Below are positions 1 through 19,451 of a DNA stretch of 19,451 nucleotides, piece after piece. The stretch's first letter is position 1, and every line of letters starts with the position of its first letter. This DNA is from a virus. Its lineage: Duplodnaviria; Heunggongvirae; Uroviricota; Caudoviricetes. Under the pieces are notes generated by a model, which searched no databases, had not been told where the DNA came from, and saw nothing but the letters and a program-made list of their open reading frames with translations. The stretch lies in IMG/VR virus record IMGVR_UViG_2576861193_000001; one strand, written 5' to 3'. The position numbers were made by a program, and so were the translations under genes.

Positions 1-246
1 GCACCTCAAAAACACCATCATACACTAAATCAGTAAGTTGGCAGCATCACCCGAGAACGGATTTAACTAAATCTGTGCGCCACCAGTTAACGGCAGTACC
101 ACGAAACAACCCAAGCCAGTAAGTGGGGAAATAACACCGGCAGCCACTGAAAGATGAACCTCCTGCCTTATGGCAAAAAAGATTCTTTGTGGTGGCGGAC
201 TGATGGAAAGACATCCTAATTTCAGCCAAACATTGAAGGAGTTGTT

Positions 247-318
247 ATGTCAGCAGAAGGTTTCAATAACCCATCAAAATTCCGGGATGAGTGGGATAGC
301 AGCGTAAAGAGTAAGTGA
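247..318 (+). CDS. Possible 23-aa micro-ORF (MSAEGFNNPSKFRDEWDSSVKSK); speculative
   Basis: Canonical Shine-Dalgarno AAGGAG at 236..241, 5-nt spacer, ATG at 247, TGA at 316..318. Below the 60-aa cutoff of the ORF track. No homology recognised. Confidence 0.25.
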   Translation: MSAEGFNNPSKFRDEWDSSVKSK

Positions 319-610
319 TGCCATCACAAAAGCCATTCCCTACAGAGTGGCTTTGATAATGGCTTATACCCTACACGGGATAACTTAACTGATATCCCTT
401 TTAAAGGATAAAGGTATTCAAGCCTGACACATCATGCGCTGTATCGTCGCCGTATTCCCGCATTAACCATGACCGTAGCCCGACGGGGAATTCCTTCTGC
501 GTGAGTGTGCGGGAATAATCAAAAACGATGCACACCGGGGTTACCGGGTACACATATTTCATCATGCCAGCGAGTCCGGTTCTGGCACGGAAGAAACCGG
601 ACGTTATGAT

Positions 611-1021
611 TTAGTGCGGAAATATTTGTGTAGTGTTCTGAATGTTCTCAGTAAAGAGTAATGAATTATCAAAGGTATAGTAATATCTTTTTTGTTCGTG
701 GATATTTGTAACCCACCGAAAAACTCCTGCTTTAGCAAGGTTTCTTCTGTATTCCTGAAATGTGATCTCTCTGGATTTCAGCTTATTAGAGGTCGTTTCT
801 ATAAGATGCCTATCCTTTGAAAATTTGACAGACACAATGTTTTTTAGGCCCTTTAATAACACTGTATTATCATTTTTTAATACAATATGAACATTCTCTG
901 TGGCTAAATAGTAAATGTAATGTGAGACATTGTGACGTTTTAGCTCAGAATAAAACCATTGATAGTTTAAATCGTTTCGAACTTTATCAAATATTTGTTT
1001 AAAAATGACTACCTGATCCAT
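611..1021 (-). CDS. Hypothetical cos-proximal moron protein, 136 aa from the second ATG (141 aa if started at 1036); possibly YbcV/DUF1398-like
   Basis: Open frame 611..1036 on the minus strand in a visibly AT-rich segment. The ATG at 1021 is preceded by GGAAGG at about 7 nt, whereas the ATG at 1036 has no SD. Family assignment is from recollection of cryptic-prophage gene context (borD-ybcV-ylcI-nohD in DLP12), not verified. Confidence 0.55.
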
Positions 1022-1078
1022 AGATAAACCTTCCATGTGATATGAGGGGGCGTAGTCTGCACGATTATCTAAATTGCT

Positions 1079-1312
1079 TCAATCTGGTCTGACCTGTTTT
1101 CTGAGCAATTCAGTAATGTCACTCTTTTCTTTGTTTGCTTCAGGAGAAACTCTTTTTTCTGAGCACAGTCTCCGGCGGCAGGCTTCAATGACCCAGGCTG
1201 AGAAATTCCCGGACCCTTTTTGCTCAAGAGCGATGTTAATTTGTTCAATCATTTGGTTAGGAAAGCGGATGTTGCGGGTTGTTGTTCTGCGGGTTCTGTT
1301 CTTCGTTGACAT
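1079..1312 (-). CDS. Small ribbon-helix-helix (Arc/MetJ-like) DNA-binding protein, likely YlcI/YnfO (DUF3950) family
   Basis: 77-aa ORF with basic N-terminus, a beta-strand-like RNIRFP, helix NQMIEQINIALEQ, glycine turn KGSGNFS and helix AWVIEACRRRL, which is the RHH pattern. It sits immediately upstream of cos and Nu1, as ylcI/ynfO do in E. coli cryptic prophages (recollection). Confidence 0.65.
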   Translation of the reverse strand: MSTKNRTRRTTTRNIRFPNQMIEQINIALEQKGSGNFSAWVIEACRRRLCSEKRVSPEANKEKSDITELLRKQVRPD

Positions 1313-1481
1313 GAGGTTGTCCCGTATTCAGTGTCGCTGATTTGTATTGTCTGAAGTTGTTTTTACGTTAAGTTGATGCAGATCAATTAATACGATACCT
1401 GCGTCATAATTGATTATTTGACGTGGTTTGATGGCCTCCACGCACGTTGTGATATGTAGATGATAATCATTATCACTTTAC

Positions 1482-1675
1482 GGGTCCTTTCCGGTGATCC
1501 GACAGGTTACGGGGCGGCGACCTCGCGGGTTTTCGCTATTTATGAAAATTTTCCGGTTTAAGGCGTTTCCGTTCTTCTTCGTCATAACTTAATGTTTTTA
1601 TTTAAAATACCCTCTGAAAAGAAAGGAAACGACAGGTGCTGAAAGCGAGCTTTTTGGCCTCTGTCGTTTCCTTTC
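1482..1675 (+). other. cos: cos site: cosQ (GGGTCCT 1482..1488), cosN (12-nt cohesive-end sequence GGGCGGCGACCT 1512..1523), cosB with three Nu1-binding R elements and an AT-rich IHF-site region
   Basis: The lambda right-end sequence ...CCGACAGGTTACG is directly followed by the left-end GGGCGGCGACCTCGCGGGTTTTCGC. Heptamer CGTTTCC occurs at 1564..1570 and 1665..1671, and its reverse complement GGAAACG at 1625..1631 (R3, R1, R2). An AT-rich stretch 1586..1612 lies between R3 and R2. Confidence 0.88.
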
Positions 1676-1700
1676 TCTGTTTTTGTCCGTGGAATGAACA

Positions 1701-2220
1701 ATGGAAGTCAACAAAAAGCAGCTGGCTGACATTTTCGGTGCGAGTATCCGTACCATTCAGAACTGGCAGGAACAGGGAATGCCCGTTCTGCGAGGCGGTG
1801 GCAAGGGTAATGAGGTGCTTTATGACTCTGCCGCCGTCATAAAATGGTATGCCGAAAGGGATGCTGAAATTGAGAACGAAAAGCTGCGCCGGGAGGTTGA
1901 AGAACTGCGGCAGGCCAGCGAGGCAGATCTCCAGCCAGGAACTATTGAGTACGAACGCCATCGACTTACGCGTGCGCAGGCCGACGCACAGGAACTGAAG
2001 AATGCCAGAGACTCCGCTGAAGTGGTGGAAACCGCATTCTGTACTTTCGTGTTGTCGCGGATCGCAGGTGAAATTGCCAGTATTCTCGACGGGCTCCCCC
2101 TGTCGGTGCAGCGGCGTTTTCCGGAACTGGAAAACCGACATGTTGATTTCCTGAAACGGGATATCATCAAAGCCATGAACAAAGCAGCCGCGCTGGATGA
2201 ACTGATACCGGGGTTGCTGA

Positions 2221-2246
<26 letters not shown>
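1701..2246 (+). CDS. nu1: Terminase small subunit Nu1
   Basis: 181-aa ORF beginning MEVNKKQLADIFGASIRTIQNWQEQGMPVLRGGGKGNEVLYDS, recognised as lambda gpNu1 (winged HTH). It lies immediately downstream of cosB. Confidence 0.97.
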
Positions 2247-5927
<3,681 letters not shown>

Positions 5928-5947
<20 letters not shown>

Positions 5948-7247
5948 TCTCCCGCATATTGCCAGCATGGCCTTTAATGAGCCGCTTATGCTTGAACCCG
6001 CCTATGCGCGGGTTTTCTTTTGTGCGCTTGCAGGCCAGCTTGGGATCAGCCGCCTGACGGATGCGGTGTCCGGCGACAGCCTGACTGCCGGAGAGGCACC
6101 CGCGAAGCTGGCGTTATCCGTTAATGATGACGGACCACGACAGGCCCGCAGTTATCAGGTCATGAACGGCATCGCCGTGCTGCCGGTTTCCGGCACGCTG
6201 GTCAGCCGGACGCGGGCGCTGCAGCCGTATTCGGGGATGACCGGTTACAACGGCATTATCGCCCGTCTGCAACAGGCTGCCAGCGACCCGATGGTGGACG
6301 GCATTCTGCTGGATATGGACACGCCCGGCGGAATGGTGGCAGGGGCATTTGACTGCGCTGACATCATCGTCCGTGTGCGTGACATAAAGCCGGTATGGGC
6401 GCTGGCCAATGACATGAACTGCAGCGCAGGTCAGCTGCTTGCCAGTGCCGCCTCCCGGCGTCTGGTCACGCAGACCGCCCGGACAGGCTCCATCGGCGTC
6501 ATGATGGCTCACAGTAATTACGGTGCTGCGCTGGAGAAACAGGGCGTGGAAATCACGCTGATTTACAGCGGCAGCCATAAGGTGGATGGCAACCCCTACA
6601 GCCATCTTCCGGATGACGTCCGGGAGACACTGCAGTCCCGGATGGACGCAACCCGCCGGATGTTTGCGCAGAAGGTGTCGGCATATACCGGCCTGTCCGT
6701 GCAGGCTGTGCTGGATACCGAGGCTGCAGTGTACAGCGGTCAGGAGGCCATTGATGCCGGACTGGCTGATGAACTTGTCAACAGCACCGATGCGATCACC
6801 GTTATGCGTGATGCACTGGATGCACGTAAATCCCGTCTCTCAGGAGGGCGAATGACCAAAGAGACTCAATCAACAACTGTTTCAGCCACTGCTTCGCAGG
6901 CTGACGTTACTGACGTGGTGCCAGCGACGGAGGGCGAAAACGCCAGCGCGGCGCAGCCGGACGTGAACGCGCAGATCACCGCTGCGGTTGCGGCAGAAAA
7001 CAGCCGCATTATGGGGATCCTCAACTGTGAGGAGGCTCACGGACGCGAAGAACAGGCCCGCGTGCTGGCCGAAACCCCCGGTATGACCGTGGAAACGGCC
7101 CGCCGCATTCTGGCAGCTGCACCACAGAGTGCACAGGCGCGCAGTGACACTGCGCTGGATCGTCTGATGCAGGGGGCACCGGCACCGCTGGCTGCAGGTA
7201 ACCCGGCATCTGATGCCGTTAACGATTTGCTGAACACACCAGTGTAA
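5928..7247 (+). CDS. C: Prohead protease / minor capsid protein C
   Basis: GTG start at 5928 preceded by GAGGAGGAG at 5914..5922, giving the 439-aa length I recall for lambda gpC (VTAELRNLPHIASMAFNEPLMLEP...). Overlaps the B 3' end by 20 nt. The ORF-track start at 5814 is rejected. Confidence 0.93.
6642..7247 (+). CDS. nu3: Capsid scaffolding protein Nu3 (in-frame internal start within C)
   Basis: In-frame ATG at 6642 gives a 201-aa product sharing the C-terminus of C, which is the lambda C/Nu3 nested arrangement (established knowledge). The ATG position was verified in the sequence. Confidence 0.85.
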   Translation: MDATRRMFAQKVSAYTGLSVQAVLDTEAAVYSGQEAIDAGLADELVNSTDAITVMRDALDARKSRLSGGRMTKETQSTTVSATASQADVTDVVPATEGENASAAQPDVNAQITAAVAAENSRIMGILNCEEAHGREEQARVLAETPGMTVETARRILAAAPQSAQARSDTALDRLMQGAPAPLAAGNPASDAVNDLLNTPV

Positions 7248-7256
7248 GGGATGTTT

Positions 7257-7589
7257 ATGACGAGCAAAGAAACCTTTACCCATTACCAGCCGCTGGGCAA
7301 CAGTGACCCGGCTCATACCGCAACCGCGCCCGGCGGATTGAGTGCGAAAGCGCCTGCAATGACCCCGCTGATGCTGGACACCTCCACCCGTAAGCTGGTT
7401 GCGTGGGATGGCACCACCGACGGTGCTGCCGTTGGCATTCTTGCAGTTGCTGCTGACCAGACCAGCACCACACTGACGTTCTACAAGTCCGGCACGTTCC
7501 GTTATGAGGATGTGCTCTGGCCGGAGGCTGCCAGCAACGAGACGAAAAAACGGACCGCGTTTGCCGGAACGGCAATCAGCATCGTTTAA
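7257..7589 (+). CDS. D: Head decoration protein D
   Basis: 110-aa product [27 protein letters not shown]... recognised as lambda gpD. AAGGG lies upstream of the ATG at 7257; the alternative ATG at 7251 lacks an SD. Confidence 0.95.
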
Positions 7590-7606
7590 CTTTACCCTTC
7601 ATCACT

Positions 7607-7631
7607 AAAGGCCGCCTGTGCGGCTTTTTTT
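7607..7631 (+). terminator. Intrinsic-terminator-like hairpin between D and E (GCCGC-ctgt-GCGGC followed by T7)
   Basis: 5-bp GC stem 7611..7615 / 7620..7624 with a 4-nt loop, followed by TTTTTTT at 7625..7631. Seen directly; function inferred. Confidence 0.4.
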
Positions 7632-7644
7632 ACGGGATTTTTTT

Positions 7645-8670
7645 ATGTCGATGTACACAACCGCCCAGCTGCTGGCGGCAAATGAGCAGAAATTTAAGTT
7701 TGATCCGCTGTTTCTGCGTCTCTTTTTCCGTGAGAGCTATCCCTTCACTACGGAGAAAGTCTATCTCTCACAAATTCCGGGACTGGTAAACATGGCGCTG
7801 TACGTTTCGCCGATTGTTTCCGGTGAGGTTATCCGTTCCCGTGGCGGCTCCACCTCTGAATTTACGCCGGGATATGTCAAACCCAAGCATGAGGTGAATC
7901 CGCAGATGACCCTGCGTCGCCTGCCGGATGAAGATCCGCAGAATCTGGCGGACCCGGCTTACCGCCGCCGTCGCATCATCATGCAGAACATGCGTGACGA
8001 AGAGCTGGCCATTGCTCAGGTCGAAGAGATGCAGGCAGTTTCTGCCGTGCTCAAGGGCAAATACACCATGACCGGTGAAGCCTTCGATCCGGTTGAGGTG
8101 GATATGGGCCGCAGTGCGGCGAACAACATCACACAGTCCGGCGTCACGGAGTGGAGCAAGCGTGACAAGTCCACGTATGACCCGACCGACGATATCGAAG
8201 CCTACGCGCTGAACGCCAGCGGTGTGGTGAATATCATCGTGTTTGACCCGAAAGGCTGGGCGCTGTTCCGTTCCTTCAAAGCCGTCAAGGAGAAGCTGGA
8301 TACCCGTCGCGGCTCTCATTCCGAGCTGGAGACAGCGGTAAAAGACCTGGGCAAAGCGGTGTCCTATAAGGGGATGTATGGCGATGTGGCCATCGTCGTG
8401 TATTCCGGACAGTACGTGGAAAACGGCGTCAAAAAGAACTTCCTGCCGGACAACACGATGGTGCTGGGGAACACTCAGGCTCGCGGTCTGCGCACCTATG
8501 GCTGCATTCAGGATGCGGACGCACAGCGCGAAGGCATTAACGCTTCTGCCCGTTACCCGAAAAACTGGGTGACCACCGGCGATCCGGCGCGTGAGTTCAC
8601 CATGATTCAGTCAGCACCGCTGATGCTGCTGGCTGACCCTGATGAGTTCGTGTCCGTACAACTGGCGTAA
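7645..8670 (+). CDS. E: Major capsid protein E (HK97 fold)
   Basis: 341-aa product MSMYTTAQLLAANEQKFKFDPLFLRLFFRESYPF... recognised as lambda gpE. The ORF-track GTG start at 7618 lies inside the upstream hairpin and is rejected. Confidence 0.97.
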   Translation: MSMYTTAQLLAANEQKFKFDPLFLRLFFRESYPFTTEKVYLSQIPGLVNMALYVSPIVSGEVIRSRGGSTSEFTPGYVKPKHEVNPQMTLRRLPDEDPQNLADPAYRRRRIIMQNMRDEELAIAQVEEMQAVSAVLKGKYTMTGEAFDPVEVDMGRSAANNITQSGVTEWSKRDKSTYDPTDDIEAYALNASGVVNIIVFDPKGWALFRSFKAVKEKLDTRRGSHSELETAVKDLGKAVSYKGMYGDVAIVVYSGQYVENGVKKNFLPDNTMVLGNTQARGLRTYGCIQDADAQREGINASARYPKNWVTTGDPAREFTMIQSAPLMLLADPDEFVSVQLA

Positions 8671-8711
8671 TCATGGCCCTTCGGGGCCATTTTCTCTCTG
8701 TGGAGGAGTCC

Positions 8712-9107
8712 ATGACGAAAGATGAACTGATTGTCCGTCTCCGGTCGCTGGGTGAGCAACTGAACCGTGATGTCAGCCTGACGGGGACGAAAGAAGAACT
8801 GGCGCTCCGTGTGGCAGAGCTGGAAGAGGAGCTTGATGACACGGATGACGGAGCCGGTCAGGACTCGTCTGTCAGCCCGGAAAATGCGCTGACCGGACAT
8901 GAAAATGAGGTGGTATCAGCACAGACGGATACCGTGACTGATACGGCTGCTCTGGTCACGGTTGTGGCACTGGTGACGCTGCATACCGATGCACTTCACG
9001 CCACGCGGGATGAACCTGTGGCATTTGTGCTGCCGGGAACGGCGTTTCGTGTCTCTGCCGGTGTGGCAGCCGAAATGACAGAACGTGGCCTGGCCAGAAT
9101 GCAATAA
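8712..9107 (+). CDS. FI: DNA-packaging accessory protein FI
   Basis: Product MTKDELIVRLRSLGEQLNRDVSLTGTKEELALRVAELEEELDD... recognised as lambda gpFI. GGAGG at 8702..8706 precedes the ATG at 8712. 131 aa here. Confidence 0.93.
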   Translation: MTKDELIVRLRSLGEQLNRDVSLTGTKEELALRVAELEEELDDTDDGAGQDSSVSPENALTGHENEVVSAQTDTVTDTAALVTVVALVTLHTDALHATRDEPVAFVLPGTAFRVSAGVAAEMTERGLARMQ

Positions 9108-9118
9108 CGGGAGGCGCT

Positions 9119-9472
9119 GTGGCTGATTTCGATAACCTGTTCGATGCTGCCATTGCCCGCGCCGATGAAACGATACGCGGGTACATGGGAACGTCAGCCA
9201 CCATGACATCCGGTGAGCAGTCAGGTGCGGTGATACGTGGTGTTTTTGATGACCCTGAAAATATCAGCTATGCCGGACAGGGCGTGCGCGTTGAAGGCTC
9301 CAGCCCGTCCCTGTTTGTCCGGACTGATGAGGTGCGGCAGCTGCGGCGTGGAGACACGCTGACCATCGGTGAGGAAAATTTCTGGGTAGATCGGGTTTCG
9401 CCGGATGATGGCGGAAGTTGTCATCTCTGGCTTGGACGGGGCGTACCGCCTGCCGTTAACCGTCGCCGCTGA
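9119..9472 (+). CDS. FII: Head-tail connector protein FII
   Basis: 117-aa ORF with GTG start preceded by GGGAGG; MADFDNLFDAAIARADETIRGYMG... recognised as lambda gpFII. Confidence 0.95.
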   Translation: MADFDNLFDAAIARADETIRGYMGTSATMTSGEQSGAVIRGVFDDPENISYAGQGVRVEGSSPSLFVRTDEVRQLRRGDTLTIGEENFWVDRVSPDDGGSCHLWLGRGVPPAVNRRR

Positions 9473-9483
9473 AAGGGGGATGT

Positions 9484-10062
9484 ATGGCCATAAAAGGTCT
9501 TGAGCAGGCCGTTGAAAACCTCAGCCGTATCAGCAAAACGGCGGTGCCTGGTGCCGCCGCAATGGCCATTAACCGCGTTGCTTCATCCGCGATATCGCAG
9601 TCGGCGTCACAAGTTGCCCGTGAGACAAAGGTACGCCGGAAACTGGTAAAGGAAAGGGCCAGGCTGAAAAGGGCCACGGTCAAAAATCCGCAGGCCAGAA
9701 TCAAAGTTAACCGGGGGGATTTGCCCGTAATCAAGCTGGGTAATGCGCGGGTTGTCCTTTCGCGCCGCAGGCGTCGTAAAAAGGGGCAGCGTTCATCCCT
9801 GAAAGGTGGCGGCAGCGTGCTTGTGGTGGGTAACCGTCGTATTCCCGGCGCGTTTATTCAGCAACTGAAAAATGGCCGGTGGCATGTCATGCAGCGTGTG
9901 GCCGGGAAAAACCGTTACCCCATTGATGTGGTGAAAATCCCGATGGCGGTGCCGCTGACCACGGCGTTTAAACAAAATATTGAGCGGATACGGCGTGAAC
10001 GTCTTCCGAAAGAGCTGGGCTATGCGCTGCAGCATCAACTGAGGATGGTAATAAAGCGATGA
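9484..10062 (+). CDS. Z: Tail completion protein Z
   Basis: 192-aa ORF MAIKGLEQAVENLSRISKTAVPGAAAMAINRV... recognised as lambda gpZ. Good SD (AAGGGGGA). Confidence 0.95.
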   Translation: MAIKGLEQAVENLSRISKTAVPGAAAMAINRVASSAISQSASQVARETKVRRKLVKERARLKRATVKNPQARIKVNRGDLPVIKLGNARVVLSRRRRRKKGQRSSLKGGGSVLVVGNRRIPGAFIQQLKNGRWHVMQRVAGKNRYPIDVVKIPMAVPLTTAFKQNIERIRRERLPKELGYALQHQLRMVIKR

Positions 10063-10454
10063 AATATACTGAACTCCGTGCAGCCGTACTGGATGCACTG
10101 GAGAAGCATGACACCGGGGCGACGTTTTTTGATGGTCGCCCCGCTGTTTTTGATGAGGCGGATTTTCCGGCAGTTGCCGTTTATCTCACCGGCGCTGAAT
10201 ACACGGGCGAAGAGCTGGACAGCGATACCTGGCAGGCGGAGCTGCATATCGAAGTTTTCCTGCCTGCTCAGGTGCCGGATTCAGAGCTGGATGCGTGGAT
10301 GGAGTCCCGGATTTATCCGGTGATGAGCGATATCCCGGCACTGTCAGATTTGATCACCAGTATGGTGGCCAGCGGCTATGACTACCGGCGCGACGATGAT
10401 GCGGGCCTGTGGAGTTCAGCCGATCTGACTTATGTCATTACCTATGAAATGTGA
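10059..10454 (+). CDS. U: Tail terminator protein U
   Basis: 131-aa [51 protein letters not shown]... recognised as lambda gpU. ATGA overlap with the Z stop. Confidence 0.96.
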
Positions 10455-10461
10455 GGACGCT

Positions 10462-11202
10462 ATGCCTGTACCAAATCCTACAATGCCGGTGAAAGGTGCC
10501 GGGACCACCCTGTGGGTTTATAAGGGGAGCGGTGACCCTTATGCGAATCCGCTTTCAGACGTTGACTGGTCGCGTCTGGCAAAAGTTAAAGACCTGACGC
10601 CCGGCGAACTGACCGCTGAGTCCTATGACGACAGCTATCTCGATGATGAAGATGCAGACTGGACTGCGACCGGGCAGGGGCAGAAATCTGCCGGAGATAC
10701 CAGCTTCACGCTGGCGTGGATGCCCGGAGAGCAGGGGCAGCAGGCGCTGCTGGCGTGGTTTAATGAAGGTGATACCCGTGCCTATAAAATCCGCTTCCCG
10801 AACGGCACGGTCGATGTGTTCCGTGGCTGGGTCAGCAGTATCGGTAAGGCGGTGACGGCGAAGGAAGTGATTACCCGCACGGTGAAGGTCACCAATGTGG
10901 GACGTCCGTCGATGGCAGAAGATCGCAGCACGGTGACGGCGACAACCGGCATGACGGTGACACCCGCCAGTGCCTCCGTAGTGAAAGGGCAGAGCACCAC
11001 GCTGACCGTGGCATTCCAGCCGGAAGGCGCAACCGACAAGAGCTTCCGTGCGGTGTCTGCGGATAAAACAAAAGCCACCGTGTCGGTCAGTGGTATGACC
11101 ATCACCGTGAAAGGTGTTGCTGCAGGCAAGGTCAACATTCCGGTTGTATCCGGTAATGGTGAACTTGCTGCGGTTGCAGAAATTACCGTCACCGCCAGTT
11201 AA
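10462..11202 (+). CDS. V: Major tail tube protein V (with C-terminal Ig-like domain)
   Basis: 246-aa product [36 protein letters not shown]... recognised as lambda gpV. GAGGA precedes the ATG at 10462; the track start at 10432 is rejected. The C-terminal repeat-like [19 protein letters not shown]... fits the known Ig-like (Big_2) decoration domain. Confidence 0.96.
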
Positions 11203-11217
11203 TCCGGAGAGTCAGCG

Positions 11218-11640
11218 ATGTTCCTGAAAACCGAATCATTTGAACATAACGGTGTGACCGTCACGCTTTCTGAACTGTCAGCCCTGCAGCGTATTGAGCA
11301 TCTCGCCCTGATGAAACGGCAGGCAGAACAGGCGGAGTCAGACAGCAACCGGAAGTTTACTGTGGAAGACGCCATCAGAACCGGCGCGTTTCTGGTGGCG
11401 ATGTCCCTGTGGCATAACCATCCGCAGAAGACAAAGCTGCCGTCCATGAATGAAGCCGTTAAACAGATTGAGCAGGAAGTGCTTACCACCTGGCCCACGG
11501 AGGCAATTTCTCATGCTGAAAACGTGGTGTACCGGCTGTCTGGTATGTATGAGTTTGTGGTGAATAATGCCCCTGAACAGACAGAGGACGCCGGGCCCGC
11601 AGAGCCTGTTTCTGCGGGAAAGTGTTCGACGGTGAGCTGA
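11218..11640 (+). CDS. G: Tail assembly chaperone G
   Basis: 140-aa ORF MFLKTESFEHNGVTVTLSELSALQRIEHLALMKRQAEQ... recognised as lambda gpG. Confidence 0.95.
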   Translation: MFLKTESFEHNGVTVTLSELSALQRIEHLALMKRQAEQAESDSNRKFTVEDAIRTGAFLVAMSLWHNHPQKTKLPSMNEAVKQIEQEVLTTWPTEAISHAENVVYRLSGMYEFVVNNAPEQTEDAGPAEPVSAGKCSTVS

Positions 11641-12056
11641 GTTTTGCCCTGAAACTGGCGCGTGAGATGGGGCGACCCGACTGGCGTGCCATGCTTGCCG
11701 GGATGTCATCCACGGAGTATGCCGACTGGCACCGCTTTTACAGTACCCATTATTTTCATGATGTTCTGCTGGATATGCACTTTTCCGGGCTGACGTACAC
11801 CGTGCTCAGCCTGTTTTTCAGCGATCCGGATATGCATCCGCTGGATTTCAGTCTGCTGAACCGGCGCGAGGCTGACGAAGAGCCTGAAGATGATGTGCTG
11901 ATGCAGAAAGCGGCAGGGCTTGCCGGAGGTGTCCGCTTTGGCCCGGACGGGAATGAAGTTATCCCTACTTCCCCGGATGTGGCGGACATGACGGAGGATG
12001 ACGTAATGCTGATGACAGTATCAGAAGGGATCGCAGGAGGAGTCCGGTATGGCTGA
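11218..12056 (+). CDS. GT: Tail assembly chaperone G-T fusion produced by -1 frameshift near 11621/11622
   Basis: G frame joined to the T frame at the slippery site. The T-frame product ...FDGELSFALKLAREMGRPDWRAMLAGMSSTEYADWHRFYSTHYF... is recognised as the lambda gpT portion. T is not expected to be translated independently. Confidence 0.85.
11616..11622 (+). promoter_or_regulatory. Programmed -1 ribosomal frameshift slippery heptamer G GGA AAG (G to G-T)
   Basis: GGGAAAG at 11616..11622 with GGA and AAG in the G zero frame; the -1 frame is open from 11622 to 12056 (the T frame). Matches the lambda G/GT frameshift site (established knowledge). Confidence 0.85.
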
Positions 12057-14628
12057 ACCGGTAGGCGATCTGGTCGTTGATTTGAGTCTGGATGCGGCCA
12101 GATTTGACGAGCAGATGGCCAGAGTCAGGCGTCATTTTTCCGGTACGGAAAGTGATGCGAAAAAAACAGCGGCAGTCGTTGAACAGTCGATGAACCGGCA
12201 GGCGCTGGCTGCACAGAAAGCGGGAATTTCCGTCGGGCAGTATAAAGCCGCCATGCGTATGCTGCCTGCGCAGTTCACTGACGTGGCCACGCAGCTTGCA
12301 GGCGGGCAAAGTCCGTGGCTGATCCTGCTGCAACAGGGGGGTCAGGTGAAGGACTCCTTCGGCGGGATGATCCCCATGTTCCGGGGGCTTGCCGGTGCGA
12401 TCACCCTGCCGATGGTGGGGGCCACCTCGCTGGCGGTGGCGACCGGTGCGCTGGCGTATGCCTGGTATCAGGGCAACTCAACCCTGTCCGATTTCAACAA
12501 AACGCTGGTCCTTTCCGGCAATCAGGCCGGGCTGACGGCAGATCGTATGCTGGTCCTGTCCAGAGCCGGGCAGGCGGCAGGGCTGACGTTTAACCAGACC
12601 AGCGAGTCACTCAGCGCACTGGTTAAGGCGGGGGTAAGCGGTGAGGCTCAGATTGCGTCCATCAGCCAGAGTGTGGCGCGTTTCTCCTCTGCATCCGGCG
12701 TGGAGGTGGACAAGGTCGCTGAAGCCTTCGGGAAGCTGACCACTGACCCGACGTCGGGGCTGACGGCGATGGCACGCCAGTTCCATAACGTGACGGCGGA
12801 GCAGATTGCGTATGTTGCTCAGTTGCAGCGTTCCGGCGATGAAGCCGGGGCATTGCAGGCGGCGAACGAGGCCGCAACGAAAGGGTTTGATGACCAGACC
12901 CGCCGCCTGAAAGAGAACATGGGCACGCTGGAAACCTGGGCAGACAGGACAGCACGGGCATTCAAATCCATGTGGGATTCGGTGCTGGATATTGGTCGCC
13001 CGGACACTGCCCAGGGAATGCTGGAGAAAGCAGAAAAGGCTTTTGATGAGGCGGACAAAAAATGGCAGTGGTATCAGAGCCGGAGCCACCGGCGCGGTAA
13101 AACCTCAGCATTTCTTGCCAATCTCCGGGGAGCATGGGAGGACAGAGCGAATGCGCAACTTGGGCTTTCAGCCGCCACGTTGCAGGCCGATCTTGAAAAG
13201 GCCAGAGAGATGGCAGCAAAGGACTGGGCCGAGTCTGAGGCATCACGGCTGAAATATACCGAAGAGGCGCAGAAGGCTTACGAACGGCTGCAGACGCCGC
13301 TGGAGAAATATACCGCCCGTCAGGAAGAACTGAACAAGGCACTGAAAGACGGGAAAATCCTGCAGGCGGATTACAACACGCTGATGGCGGCGGCGAAAAA
13401 GGATTATGAAGCGACGCTGAAAAAGCCGAAACAGTCCGGCGTGAAGGTGTCTGCGGGCGATCGTCAGGAAGACAGTGCTCATGCTGCCCTGCTGACGCTT
13501 CAGGCAGAACTCCGGACGCTGGAGAAGCATGCCGGAGCAAATGAGAAAATCAGCCAGCAGCGCCGGGATTTGTGGAAGGCGGAGAGTCAGTTCGCGGTAC
13601 TGGAGGAGGCGGCGCAACGTCGCCAGCTGTCTGCACAGGAGAAATCCCTGCTGGCGCATAAAGATGAGACGCTGGAGTACAAACGCCAGCTGGCTGCACT
13701 TGGCGACAAGGTTACGTATCAGGAGCGCCTGAACGCGCTGGCGCAGCAGGCGGATAAATTCGCACAGCAGCAACGGGCAAAACGGGCCGCCATTGATGCG
13801 AAAAGCCGGGGGCTGACTGACCGGCAGGCAGAACGGGAAGCCACGGAACAGCGCCTGAAGGAACAGTATGGCGATAATCCGCTGGCGCTGAATAACGTCA
13901 TGTCAGAGCAGAAAAAGACCTGGGCGGCTGAAGACCAGCTTCGCGGGAGCTGGATGGCAGGCCTGAAGTCCGGCTGGAGTGAGTGGGAAGAGAGCGCCAC
14001 GGACAGTATGTCGCAGGTTAAAAGTGCAGCCACGCAGACCTTTGATGGTATTGCACAGAATATGGCGGCGATGCTGACCGGCAGTGAGCAGAACTGGCGC
14101 AGCTTCACCCGTTCCGTGCTGTCCATGATGACAGAAATTCTGCTTAAGCAGGCAATGGTGGGGATTGTCGGGAGTATCGGCAGCGCCATTGGCGGTGCTG
14201 CCAGTGGTGGAGCATCCGCGTCAGGCGGTACAGCCATTCAGGCCGCTGCGGCGAAATTCCATTTTGCGACCGGGGGATTTACGGGAACCGGCGGCAAATA
14301 TGAGCCAGCGGGGATTGTTCACCGTGGTGAATTTGTCTTCACGAAGGAGGCAACCAGCCGGATTGGTGTCGGCAACCTGTACCGCCTGATGCGGGGCTAT
14401 GCGGAAGGTGGTTATGTGGGCGGTGCCGGAAGTCCGGCGCAGATGCGGCGGGCTGAAGGCATTAATTTTAATCAGAACAATCACGTGGTGATTCAGAACG
14501 ACGGTACGAATGGTCTGCCAGGTCCACAGATGATGAAGGCAGTGTATGACATGGCCCGCAAGGGTGCCCGTGATGAAATTCAGACACAGATGCGTGATGG
14601 TGGCCTGTTCTCCGGAGGTGGACGATGA
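12049..14628 (+). CDS. H: Tail tape measure protein H
   Basis: 859-aa ORF MAEPVGDLVVDLSLDAARFDEQMARVRRHFSGTESDAKKTAAVVEQ... recognised as lambda gpH. AGGAGG precedes the start, which overlaps the T-frame stop. Long Ala/Gln/Glu-rich helical middle and a Gly-rich C-terminus. Confidence 0.96.
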   Translation: MAEPVGDLVVDLSLDAARFDEQMARVRRHFSGTESDAKKTAAVVEQSMNRQALAAQKAGISVGQYKAAMRMLPAQFTDVATQLAGGQSPWLILLQQGGQVKDSFGGMIPMFRGLAGAITLPMVGATSLAVATGALAYAWYQGNSTLSDFNKTLVLSGNQAGLTADRMLVLSRAGQAAGLTFNQTSESLSALVKAGVSGEAQIASISQSVARFSSASGVEVDKVAEAFGKLTTDPTSGLTAMARQFHNVTAEQIAYVAQLQRSGDEAGALQAANEAATKGFDDQTRRLKENMGTLETWADRTARAFKSMWDSVLDIGRPDTAQGMLEKAEKAFDEADKKWQWYQSRSHRRGKTSAFLANLRGAWEDRANAQLGLSAATLQADLEKAREMAAKDWAESEASRLKYTEEAQKAYERLQTPLEKYTARQEELNKALKDGKILQADYNTLMAAAKKDYEATLKKPKQSGVKVSAGDRQEDSAHAALLTLQAELRTLEKHAGANEKISQQRRDLWKAESQFAVLEEAAQRRQLSAQEKSLLAHKDETLEYKRQLAALGDKVTYQERLNALAQQADKFAQQQRAKRAAIDAKSRGLTDRQAEREATEQRLKEQYGDNPLALNNVMSEQKKTWAAEDQLRGSWMAGLKSGWSEWEESATDSMSQVKSAATQTFDGIAQNMAAMLTGSEQNWRSFTRSVLSMMTEILLKQAMVGIVGSIGSAIGGAASGGASASGGTAIQAAAAKFHFATGGFTGTGGKYEPAGIVHRGEFVFTKEATSRIGVGNLYRLMRGYAEGGYVGGAGSPAQMRRAEGINFNQNNHVVIQNDGTNGLPGPQMMKAVYDMARKGARDEIQTQMRDGGLFSGGGR

Positions 14629-14954
14629 AAACCTTCCGCTGGAAAGTGAAACCCGGTATGGATGTGGCTTCGGCCCCTTCTGTAAGAAAGGTGCGCTTTG
14701 GTGATGGCTATTCCCAGCGAGCGCCTGCCGGGCTGAATGCCAACCTGAAAACGTACAGCGTGACGCTTTCTGTCCCCCGTGAGGAGGCCACGGTACTGGA
14801 GTCGTTTCTGGAAGAGCACGGGGGCTGGAAAGCCTTTCTGTGGACGCCGCCTTATGAGTGGCGGCAGATAAAGGTGACCTGCGCAAAATGGTCGTCGCGG
14901 GTCAGTATGCTGCGTGTTGAGTTCAGCGCAGAGTTTGAACAGGTGGTGAACTGA
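14625..14954 (+). CDS. M: Tail tip protein M
   Basis: 109-aa ORF MKTFRWKVKPGMDVASAPSVRKVRFGDGYSQRAPAGLNANLKTY... recognised as lambda gpM. ATGA overlap with the H stop. Confidence 0.96.
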   Translation: MKTFRWKVKPGMDVASAPSVRKVRFGDGYSQRAPAGLNANLKTYSVTLSVPREEATVLESFLEEHGGWKAFLWTPPYEWRQIKVTCAKWSSRVSMLRVEFSAEFEQVVN

Positions 14955-15652
14955 TGCAGGATATCCGGCAGGAAACACTGAATGAATGCACCCGTGCGGA
15001 GCAGTCGGCCAGCGTGGTGCTCTGGGAAATCGACCTGACAGAGGTCGGTGGAGAACGTTATTTTTTCTGTAATGAGCTGAACGAAAAAGGTGAGCCGGTC
15101 ACCTGGCAGGGGCGACAGTATCAGCCGTATCCCATTCAGGGGAGTGGTTTTGAACTGAATGGCAAAGGCACCAGTACGCGCCCCACGCTGACGGTTTCTA
15201 ACCTGTACGGTATGGTCACCGGGATGGCGGAAGATCTGCAGAGTCTGGTCGGCGGAACGGTGGTCCGGCGTAAGGTTTACGCCCGTTTTCTGGATGCGGT
15301 GAACTTCGTTAACGGAAACAGTGACGCCGATCCGGAGCAGGAGGTGATCAGCCGCTGGCGCATCGAGCAGTGCAGCGAACTGAGCGCGGTGAGTGCCTCC
15401 TTTGTACTGTCCACGCCGACGGAAACAGATGGCGCTGTTTTTCCGGGACGTATCATGCTGGCCAACACCTGCACCTGGACCTATCGCGGCGATGAGTGCG
15501 GTTATCACGGTCCGGCGGTCGCGGATGAATATGACCAGACAACGTCCGATATCACGAAGGATAAATGCAGCAAATGCCTGAGTGGCTGTAAGTTTCGCAA
15601 TAACGTCGGCAACTTTGGCGGCTTCCTTTCCATTAACAAACTTTCGCAGTAA
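14954..15652 (+). CDS. L: Tail tip protein L (C-terminal Cys cluster)
   Basis: 232-aa ORF MQDIRQETLNECTRAEQSASVVLWEIDLTEVGGERYFF... recognised as lambda gpL. C-terminal CSKCLSGCKF cysteine cluster is consistent with the reported Fe-S site. Start overlaps the M stop (TGATG). Confidence 0.96.
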   Translation: MQDIRQETLNECTRAEQSASVVLWEIDLTEVGGERYFFCNELNEKGEPVTWQGRQYQPYPIQGSGFELNGKGTSTRPTLTVSNLYGMVTGMAEDLQSLVGGTVVRRKVYARFLDAVNFVNGNSDADPEQEVISRWRIEQCSELSAVSASFVLSTPTETDGAVFPGRIMLANTCTWTYRGDECGYHGPAVADEYDQTTSDITKDKCSKCLSGCKFRNNVGNFGGFLSINKLSQ

Positions 15653-15657
15653 ATCCC

Positions 15658-16401
15658 ATGACACAGACAGAATCAGCGATTCTGGCGCACGCCCGGCGAT
15701 GTGCGCCAGCGGAGTCGTGCGGCTTCGTGGTAAGCACGCCGGAGGGGGAAAGATATTTCCCCTGCGTGAATATCTCCGGTGAGCCGGAGGCGTATTTCCG
15801 TATGTCGCCGGAGGACTGGCTGCAGGCAGAAATGCAGGGTGAGATTGTGGCGCTGGTCCACAGCCACCCCGGTGGTCTGCCCTGGCTGAGTGAGACTGAC
15901 CGGCGGCTGCAGGTGCAGAGTGATTTGCCGTGGTGGCTGGTCTGCCGGGGGACGATTCATAAGTTCCGCTGTGTGCCGCATCTCACCGGGCGGCGCTTTG
16001 AGCACGGTGTGACGGACTGTTACACACTGTTCCGGGATGCTTATCATCTGGCGGGGATTGAGATGCCGGACTTTCATCGTGAGGATGACTGGTGGCGTAA
16101 CGGCCAGAATCTCTATCTGGATAATCTGGAGGCCACAGGGCTGTATCAGGTGCCGTTGTCATCAGCACAACCGGGCGATGTGCTGCTGTGCTGTTTTGGT
16201 TCATCGGTGCCGAATCATGCCGCCATTTACTGTGGTGATGGCGAGCTGCTGCACCATATTCCTGAACAACTGAGCAAACGAGAGAGGTATACCGACAAAT
16301 GGCAGCGACGCACACACTCCCTCTGGCGTCACCGGGCATGGCGCGCATCTGCCTTTACGGGGATTTACAACGATTTGGCCGCCGCATCGACCTTCGTGTG
16401 A
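15658..16401 (+). CDS. K: Tail tip assembly protein K (JAMM/MPN-like domain followed by NlpC/P60-like domain); start ambiguous (15658 vs 15802)
   Basis: Open frame from ATG 15658 (6 nt after the L stop) to TGA 16401. A complete JAMM motif HSHPGGLPWLSETD (H-x-H-x7-S-x2-D) with an upstream Glu (AESCGF) is intact only if translation starts at 15658. The classical 199-aa lambda K would start at the internal ATG 15802. C-terminal Cys/His motifs (TDCYTLF, NHAAIY) suggest NlpC/P60. Confidence 0.85.
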   Translation: MTQTESAILAHARRCAPAESCGFVVSTPEGERYFPCVNISGEPEAYFRMSPEDWLQAEMQGEIVALVHSHPGGLPWLSETDRRLQVQSDLPWWLVCRGTIHKFRCVPHLTGRRFEHGVTDCYTLFRDAYHLAGIEMPDFHREDDWWRNGQNLYLDNLEATGLYQVPLSSAQPGDVLLCCFGSSVPNHAAIYCGDGELLHHIPEQLSKRERYTDKWQRRTHSLWRHRAWRASAFTGIYNDLAAASTFV

Positions 16402-16970
16402 AAACGGGGGCTGAAGCCATCCGCGCACTGGCCACACAGCTCCCGGCGTTTCGTCAGAAACTGAGCGACGGCTGGTATCAGGTACGGATTGCCGGGCAGG
16501 ATGTCAGCACGTCCGGATTAACGGCGCAGTTACATGAGACTCTGCCTGATGGCGCTGTGATTCATATTGTTCCCAGAGTCGCCGGGGCCAAGTCAGGTGG
16601 CGTATTCCAGATTGTCCTGGGGGCTGCCGCCATTGCCGGATCATTCTTTACCGCCGGGGCCACCCTTGCAGCATGGGGGGCAGCCATTGGGGCCGGTGGT
16701 ATGACCGGCATCCTGTTTTCTCTCGGTGCCAGTATGGTGCTCGGTGGTGTGGCGCAGATGCTGGCACCGAAAGCCAGAACTCCCCGTACACAGACAACGG
16801 ATAACGGCAAACAGAACACCTATTTCTCCTCACTGGATAACATGGTTGCCCAGGGCAATGTTCTGCCGGTTCTGTACGGTGAAATGCGCGTGGGGTCGCG
16901 GGTGGTCTCTCAGGAGATCAGCACGGCAGACGAAGGGGATGGTGGTCAGGTTGTGGTGATTGGTCGCTGA
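16299..16970 (+). CDS. I: Tail tip assembly protein I
   Basis: 223-aa ORF MAATHTLPLASPGMARICLYGDLQRFGRRIDLRVKTGAEAIRALA... recognised as lambda gpI. Overlaps the K 3' end by 103 nt in a different frame. Confidence 0.95.
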   Translation: MAATHTLPLASPGMARICLYGDLQRFGRRIDLRVKTGAEAIRALATQLPAFRQKLSDGWYQVRIAGQDVSTSGLTAQLHETLPDGAVIHIVPRVAGAKSGGVFQIVLGAAAIAGSFFTAGATLAAWGAAIGAGGMTGILFSLGASMVLGGVAQMLAPKARTPRTQTTDNGKQNTYFSSLDNMVAQGNVLPVLYGEMRVGSRVVSQEISTADEGDGGQVVVIGR

Positions 16971-16987
16971 TGAAAAACGTTTATGTG

Positions 16988-17015
16988 AAACCGCCTCCGG
17001 GCGGTTTTGTCGTTT
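16988..17015 (+). terminator. Intrinsic-terminator-like hairpin between I and J (AAACCGCC-tccg-GGCGGTTT followed by T-rich tract)
   Basis: 8-bp stem 16988..16995 / 17000..17007, 4-nt loop, then TTTTGTCGTTT. Seen directly; function inferred. Confidence 0.45.
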
Positions 17016-17026
17016 ATGGAGCGTGA

Positions 17027-19451
<2,425 letters not shown>

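Follow-up and report, generated by a model that had tools for sequence, protein, structure and literature searches.

What does a cohesive-end site that is read straight through say about the DNA that carries it, and is the site one at which lambda-type packaging could begin and end? We analyzed such a site at positions 1482 to 1700 of a 19,451-nt stretch of DNA (IMG/VR record IMGVR_UViG_2576861193_000001; the whole stretch is hereafter called the window). An exact-protein look-up with its large terminase subunit, gpA, identified the window as the entire contig AYKC01000063.1 of assembly GCA_000511525.1, with the gene at the same coordinates. A published paper that lists another contig of the AYKC01 assembly gives its source as Escherichia coli FBPI, from pig faeces in the Netherlands (PMC11893012). 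The contig is a piece of a draft bacterial assembly, so its DNA comes from a bacterial genome and not from a virion preparation. As set out below, positions 1482 to 1700 are very probably the cos of a lambda-type temperate phage, retained uncut within a chromosomal prophage of an E. coli isolate.

When the last 4.5 kb of the lambda reference genome (NC_001416) was joined to its first 20 kb and compared with the window by BLAST, window positions 1150 to 13023 aligned in one unbroken piece, at 98.06% identity, to lambda 48141 to 48502 plus 1 to 11516; a second piece (13237 to 19445) aligned at 96.3%. Lambda coordinates are window coordinates minus 1511. The lambda right-end sequence CGACAGGTTACG stands directly 5′ of the cohesive-end 12-mer GGGCGGCGACCT, which is lambda bp 1 to 12 and occurs once in the window (1512 to 1523), with no second match at up to two mismatches. 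In reading order, the interval from 1441 to 1710 comprises GATGATAATCATTATCACTTTAC, GGGTCCT, and TTCCGGTGATCCGACAGGTTACG on one side of the junction and, on the other, GGGCGGCGACCT, CGCGGG, an A+T-rich stretch, and then ATGGAAGTCAAC.

Between 1176 and 2300, the window differs from NC_001416 at only three places (Table 1), one of which, the absence of reference base G138, lies inside cos. This base is missing from all nine other records aligned: DE3, PV340536, E26-Berryhill, HK630, Kati, 2H10, NCTC9008, PSS-08-2, and the Qin prophage of K-12 (the same 501 bp was taken from eight of them, and K-12 Qin was aligned separately). G138 is probably an error in the 1982 reference or a change specific to its stock. 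Because all of the other aligned records are without G138, we treat this cos as identical to the functional lambda cos, and because the sole difference within cos is this reference-specific base, no cos subsite is disrupted. The missing base was considered as a lesion of cosB and dropped: among the records aligned, NC_001416 alone carries the G. Positions 1400 to 1700 are 100% identical to DE3 (EU078592), to a 2025 lambda record (PV340536), and to HK630 (JQ086376), with which the window shares cosQ, cosN, I2, R3, I1, R2, R1, and their spacing, as well as a 100% identical small terminase subunit (TerS).

Table 1. Features of the window in and around the cos site
Feature	Position	Strand	Evidence and remarks
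IS1, terminal 51 bp	1-51		Exact match to the end of an IS1A annotated in E. coli PSS-08-2 (L004, 7204-7254); body of the element beyond the left contig end
DUF1398 gene	611-1036	-	Homologue of ydfO and lambdap78; Pfam PF07166, E=1.7e-46
DUF3950 (YlcI/YnfO family) gene	1079-1312	-	Pfam PF13132, E=2.8e-21; YlcI/YnfO annotation in relatives
Difference from NC_001416	1320		T/C
Fur-type palindrome	1461-1475		Perfect 7-1-7 palindrome, TGATAATcATTATCA; outside the classical cos
cosQ, packaging-termination subsite	1482-1488	+	GGGTCCT; once in the window; lambda 48473-48479; identical to lambda
cosN	1510-1525		12-mer GGGCGGCGACCT (1512-1523), flanked on either side by 2 symmetric bp (CG...CG frame); whole, CGGGGCGGCGACCTCG
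Expected nicks	1511/1512 (top strand), 1523/1524 (bottom strand)		Definition from PMC9026076
I2 spacer (lambda bp 18-50)	1529-1561		A+T-rich, identical to lambda; critical bp 30-35 at 1541-1546
cosB R3 (lambda bp 50-65)	1561-1576	+	Critical TerS binding site; identical to lambda
I1, IHF-like core	1590-1602	-	One mismatch to WATCAANNNNTTR; between R3 and R2
cosB R2	1620-1635	-	Exact 16-mer CTGTCGTTTCCTTTCT; inverted relative to R3 and R1
Difference from NC_001416	Between 1648 and 1649		Reference G138 absent; in the R2-R1 spacer; only difference inside cos
cosB R1	1661-1676	+	Exact 16-mer CTGTCGTTTCCTTTCT
Nu1, small terminase subunit (TerS)	1701-2246	+	181/181 aa identical to lambda gpNu1; Pfam Phage_Nu1, E=2.5e-100
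Difference from NC_001416	2052		T/C, silent
A, large terminase subunit (TerL)	2221-4146	+	636/641 aa (99.2%) identical to lambda gpA; Pfam GpA_ATPase, GpA_nuclease
Head and tail genes W, B, C/Nu3, D, E, FI, FII, Z, U, V, G/T, H, M, L, K, I, and partial J	4143-19451	+	

The motif GGGTCCT, which we take to be the exact 7 bp of cosQ, lies some 30 bp upstream of the expected nick in the top strand; Wieczorek and Feiss reportedly defined cosQ as these 7 bp in 2001. The motif is invariant across 13 distinct related cos sequences, in which the left half of cosN likewise never varies and the R cores are conserved. In the literature, cosQ is described as a highly conserved 7-bp element, and lambda is credited with 12-nt cohesive ends and a 120-bp cosB that contains R3, R2, R1, and I1 (PMC4669245). 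R3 of lambda occupies bp 50 to 65, the nicks are placed at bp 12/13, Nu1 starts at bp 191, and the spacing of cosN and cosB is critical (PMC9026076); I2 spans bp 18 to 50, of which bp 30 to 35 are essential (PMC4856287). In the window, there is no indel between cosN and R3 relative to lambda, and the distance between these two subsites is kept. The motif CGTTTCC is found twice on the plus strand (1564 and 1665) and once on the minus strand (1625), each time inside a longer repeat, and R3 agrees with the R1/R2 16-mer at 12 of 16 positions. The spacer between R3 and R2 (1577 to 1619) is 74% A+T, versus 44% for the window as a whole (56% G+C). Matches to the IHF consensus are uninformative alone (12 found, 9 expected), and I1 is accepted because its position fits the placement given in the literature and its sequence is identical to lambda. 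The ATG of Nu1 follows the first cohesive-end base by 190 bp (191 in NC_001416, with its extra G).

Judged by its sequence, then, the site carries each testable defining feature of a lambda-type cos and is predicted to have lambda packaging specificity. The first-pass annotation had read the locus as the right end of lambda running directly into the left cohesive end, with a cosQ-like GGGTCCT upstream and, before Nu1, three CGTTTCC-type R elements and an A+T-rich, IHF-like region; each of these elements is found where it was expected. Alignment to a lambda cos reference, which had been proposed as the check, left the cosN 12-mer and the R elements undisrupted.

Phages 21, phi80, Gifsy-1, and Monarch, whose cosB is of the complex type, share the architecture of the site, with a cosQ, a 12-nt cosN, and the order R3–I1–R2 (inverted)–R1 (PMC4669245). 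These four and N15 carry other R sequences and other TerS recognition helices and, with them, other packaging specificities, whereas those of the window correspond exactly to lambda specificity; N15, with its simple cosB, has R3 only, whereas the window has R3, R2, and R1. Gram-negative, EcCICFT073-type phage-inducible chromosomal islands (PICIs) possess a cosQ and cosN nearly identical to those of lambda, with the same spacing (PMC9026076, PMC6739421), and a PICI, or another hijacker mimicking these two subsites, could in that respect have supplied the site. We give this origin almost no credence: PICI cos sites are without R3, I1, R2, and R1 and continue into rpp instead of terS (PMC9026076), whereas the window has a full cosB, Nu1, A, and the head and tail set. 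With cosB and Nu1 both present, a PICI-type cos is refuted.

Downstream of cos, the 18 complete genes from Nu1 to I and the J fragment are all open and encode products 88 to 100% identical to the lambda proteins; J is open for its first 807 codons, after which the contig ends. The G-T slippery heptamer GGGAAAG is present at 11616. These reading frames indicate that cos adjoins its own cognate packaging and morphogenesis module and that the module is intact. Two products are markedly less similar to lambda than their neighbors (97 to 100%): FI (8712 to 9107), at 87.9%, and the tape-measure protein H (12049 to 14628), at 90.6% and with 859 aa versus 853 aa in lambda. The gap in the lambda DNA alignment, 13023 to 13237, falls inside H. 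Across the whole window, no Rfam family reached its gathering score.

Genes for a gpA identical to that of the window are also present on two metagenome or run contigs (L024, 3834 to 12753, and L025, 3712 to 8866), on which an insertion shortens the portal gene to 293 aa. The insertion carries an integrase, AlpA, Bro-N, a D5-type primase, SSB, an E-like major capsid gene, and a gpD-like decoration gene, and it resembles a satellite or a capsid-forming PICI that resides in a lambda-like prophage.

The way in which such a cos would work is established for lambda and is transferred to the present site through sequence identity. Upon induction and excision, rolling-circle replication would generate concatemers. 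TerS (Nu1) would bind at R3 and R2, between which IHF bends the DNA at I1, while R1 serves as an accessory site, and would thereby position TerL (gpA) to introduce nicks staggered by 12 nt at cosN. The end bearing cosB would enter the prohead, and packaging would proceed rightward, from Nu1 to J, until cosQ, acting with cosN and I2, would trigger the terminating cut at the following cos. In the integrated state, cos would be covalently continuous and lie in the interior of the prophage, as it does in the contig. The proposal that the locus defines the packaging origin holds up in the sense that an intact cosQ–cosN–I2–cosB would mark both the start and the end of packaging. We infer that terminase would cut at this cos, that the prophage may be complete and inducible, and that late transcription may still reach the Nu1–J genes across the IS1.

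From the read-through junction, the first-pass annotation had concluded that the DNA is prophage, circular, or concatemeric, and not virion-linear. The cos is indeed uncut and internal to the contig, with the right-arm genes DUF1398 and DUF3950 upstream and Nu1 downstream, so that the DNA is not virion-linear. Read-through alone is, however, weak evidence for a prophage because 29 of the 94 matching phage records in GenBank also run through cos, having been opened at other positions (HK630 ends just before Nu1, and E26-Berryhill and 4W start upstream of cosN). Of the three states named, prophage is the best because of the bacterial-genome origin of the DNA, the IS1 at the contig end, and the presence of the uncut junction in closed E. 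coli chromosomes. A search with the 231 bp spanning cos (window 1470 to 1700; threshold, at least 80% coverage) found the uncut junction in 3,985 of 5,426 complete E. coli genomes, K-12 with its Qin cryptic prophage among them; the median copy number was two, 128 records had at least 99% identity, and, among the matches listed, those at 100% were laboratory lambda or DE3 lysogens. In the closed genome of NCTC9008, window positions 52 to 19451 align in one piece at 97.5%. Upstream of the aligned region, NCTC9008 has quuD, a porin gene, essD, rrrD, an Rz-type gene, and a GIY-YIG gene, so that Q, lysis genes, and cos stand in the order expected of a prophage. A prophage cos of the lambda type is an already known element, and such prophages are among the commonest types in E. 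coli.

The same 29 phage records are what could be said for the junction being an assembly product, that is, free phage DNA (virion, circular, or concatemeric) whose ends were joined or which was opened elsewhere, in which case read-through would be silent on integration. Reads derived from phage DNA after spontaneous induction could in principle enter a draft assembly. We nonetheless consider an assembly product very improbable: the contig comes from the assembly of a bacterial isolate, it ends in an IS1 repeat, as is typical for a chromosomal short-read contig, and thousands of closed chromosomes have an identical type of junction. Free intracellular lambda DNA, moreover, is itself joined at cos, so the sequence would be genuine in either case. 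The window contains no att site or host gene, its ends being IS1 on the left and the interior of J on the right; a break in the repeated IS1 is usual for short-read bacterial assemblies.

Upstream of cos, the likeness to lambda is short-lived. Leftward of cos, identity at the lambda level persists only as far as about 1150, and substitutions are clustered at its start (1154 to 1175); beyond this point, the window departs from the lambda right arm, in that its DUF1398 allele is 76% identical in amino acids to lambda p78, neither bor nor Rz lies in the window, and an IS1 end is present. Positions 52 to 1150 form a mosaic arranged like the ydfO–ynfO region of the Qin prophage, and 435 to 1095 show a weaker match (83.7%) to the lambdap78 region. 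Joints of the mosaic lie at about 318/319, 435, and 1150. The segment from 52 to 318 is common to NCTC9008-type prophages only, and the sequence from 319 on is common to many metagenome contigs, in which an Rz-type gene directly follows. A look-up with the DUF1398 protein returned only short metagenome contigs sharing the window from 319 on, none of them with IS1, and the IS1/phage junction (window 37 to 81) had no exact match across the contigs of species-representative genomes.

Homology to IS-free relatives begins exactly at position 52, whose counterpart in NCTC9008 lies 119 bp downstream of the GIY-YIG gene; because homology resumes at this distance from that gene, IS1 is placed between the lysis region and cos. 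It may represent a simple insertion or mark the border of a deleted or rearranged segment, and in the latter case a rearrangement or truncation may have stranded cos in a defective prophage. The site would then be a fossil cos of a cryptic prophage, as in Qin or DLP12 of K-12, intact in sequence and yet cut off by IS1 from the Q, lysis, or early regions, with no induction, excision, or packaging to follow. The position of the IS1 end agrees with such a history, lying as it does exactly where the relatives continue into GIY-YIG, the lysis genes, and Q. So does Qin of K-12 MG1655, in which the order ydfO–ynfO–cos–nohA matches DUF1398–DUF3950–cos–Nu1 homologue (99% mean column identity over 1300 to 1760; cosQ, cosN, and the Fur-type palindrome identical to the window) and a 98 to 99% identical cos is retained beside a truncated packaging module. 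That decay of this kind happens is illustrated by an IS1A-truncated gpA gene near bioA in PSS-08-2. Qin, however, is a remnant in which nohA abuts tail-fibre genes and R3 has a point change (window 1565, G to A) among others, whereas the window has the full set from Nu1 to J, all open and close to lambda; furthermore, a simple 768-bp IS1 insertion in a nonessential interval need not inactivate a phage. Because the Nu1–J module is fully intact, unlike that of Qin, we hold a defective remnant to be unlikely, though a serious enough prospect to be kept in mind, and we proceed with the cos of a lambda-type prophage as the preferred reading.

In the closed genome of PSS-08-2 (L004, 6170 to 7254), the large terminase gene of a related prophage is cut short by an IS1A that borders on ybhB–bioA in the attachment region of lambda. 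This is a case of prophage decay through IS1 right beside an intact cos.

In lambda, the Q-modified late transcript crosses cos. The first-pass annotation held that the junction shows the plus-strand gene series to be fed by late transcription entering from upstream, and it pointed to Rz and bor as genes to look for there. This goes beyond what the junction can tell and draws on what is known of lambda: the window has none of Q, pR′, S, R, Rz, and bor, and an IS1 end lies in the path. A tblastn search with lambda S, R, Rz, Rz1, bor, p79, and p78 returned only p78 in the window; the lysis genes lie outside it, upstream in the relatives. The 1.45 kb upstream of cos holds two leftward genes, DUF1398 (in the same place as ydfO in K-12 Qin) and DUF3950, and a consensus scan of positions 1 to 2300 gave three promoter-like and three terminator-like sites, no more than in shuffled sequences, a result that speaks neither for nor against an internal late promoter or a barrier to read-through. 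By analogy with the relatives, a late transcript plausibly crosses cos here too.

The perfect palindrome that precedes cos is separated from cosQ by 6 bp, lies about 233 bp ahead of Nu1, and is present in lambda too. The 19-bp Fur box is matched at 16 of 19 positions (1456 to 1474), and none of 200 shuffles gave a match to the palindrome. Within the palindrome, the central base is the only one that varies among the 13 distinct cos sequences, whereas bases flanking it do vary, and the Qin sequence upstream of nohA is identical to the window across the palindrome. A Fur site at −233 of nohA has been confirmed by gel shift, and a strong site is predicted at nohB (Chen et al. 2007; PMC2189734), so the site is already known for the cryptic prophages of K-12. 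In the literature, we found no link between the Fur site and cos function. The palindrome is nonetheless a candidate for a role in the cos neighborhood because it is conserved in each related cos examined and because Fur binds in vitro to the sequence at nohA in Qin, which is identical. In iron-replete cells, Fur could repress a promoter of the leftward DUF3950 and DUF1398 genes, or it could modulate the reading of cosQ by terminase and thereby the termination of packaging; we regard such a functional part as doubtful. If it were true, iron status would be linked to phage maturation or to accessory genes expressed by the lysogen.

The main value of these results is one of annotation, and they do not challenge current knowledge: a wild E. 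coli from pig faeces carries a cos–Nu1 module identical to that of laboratory lambda. A prophage cos of lambda specificity can be cut by the terminase of a superinfecting phage of the same specificity, and such cutting leads to abortive particles filled with prophage and host DNA, as discussed previously (PMC4669245).
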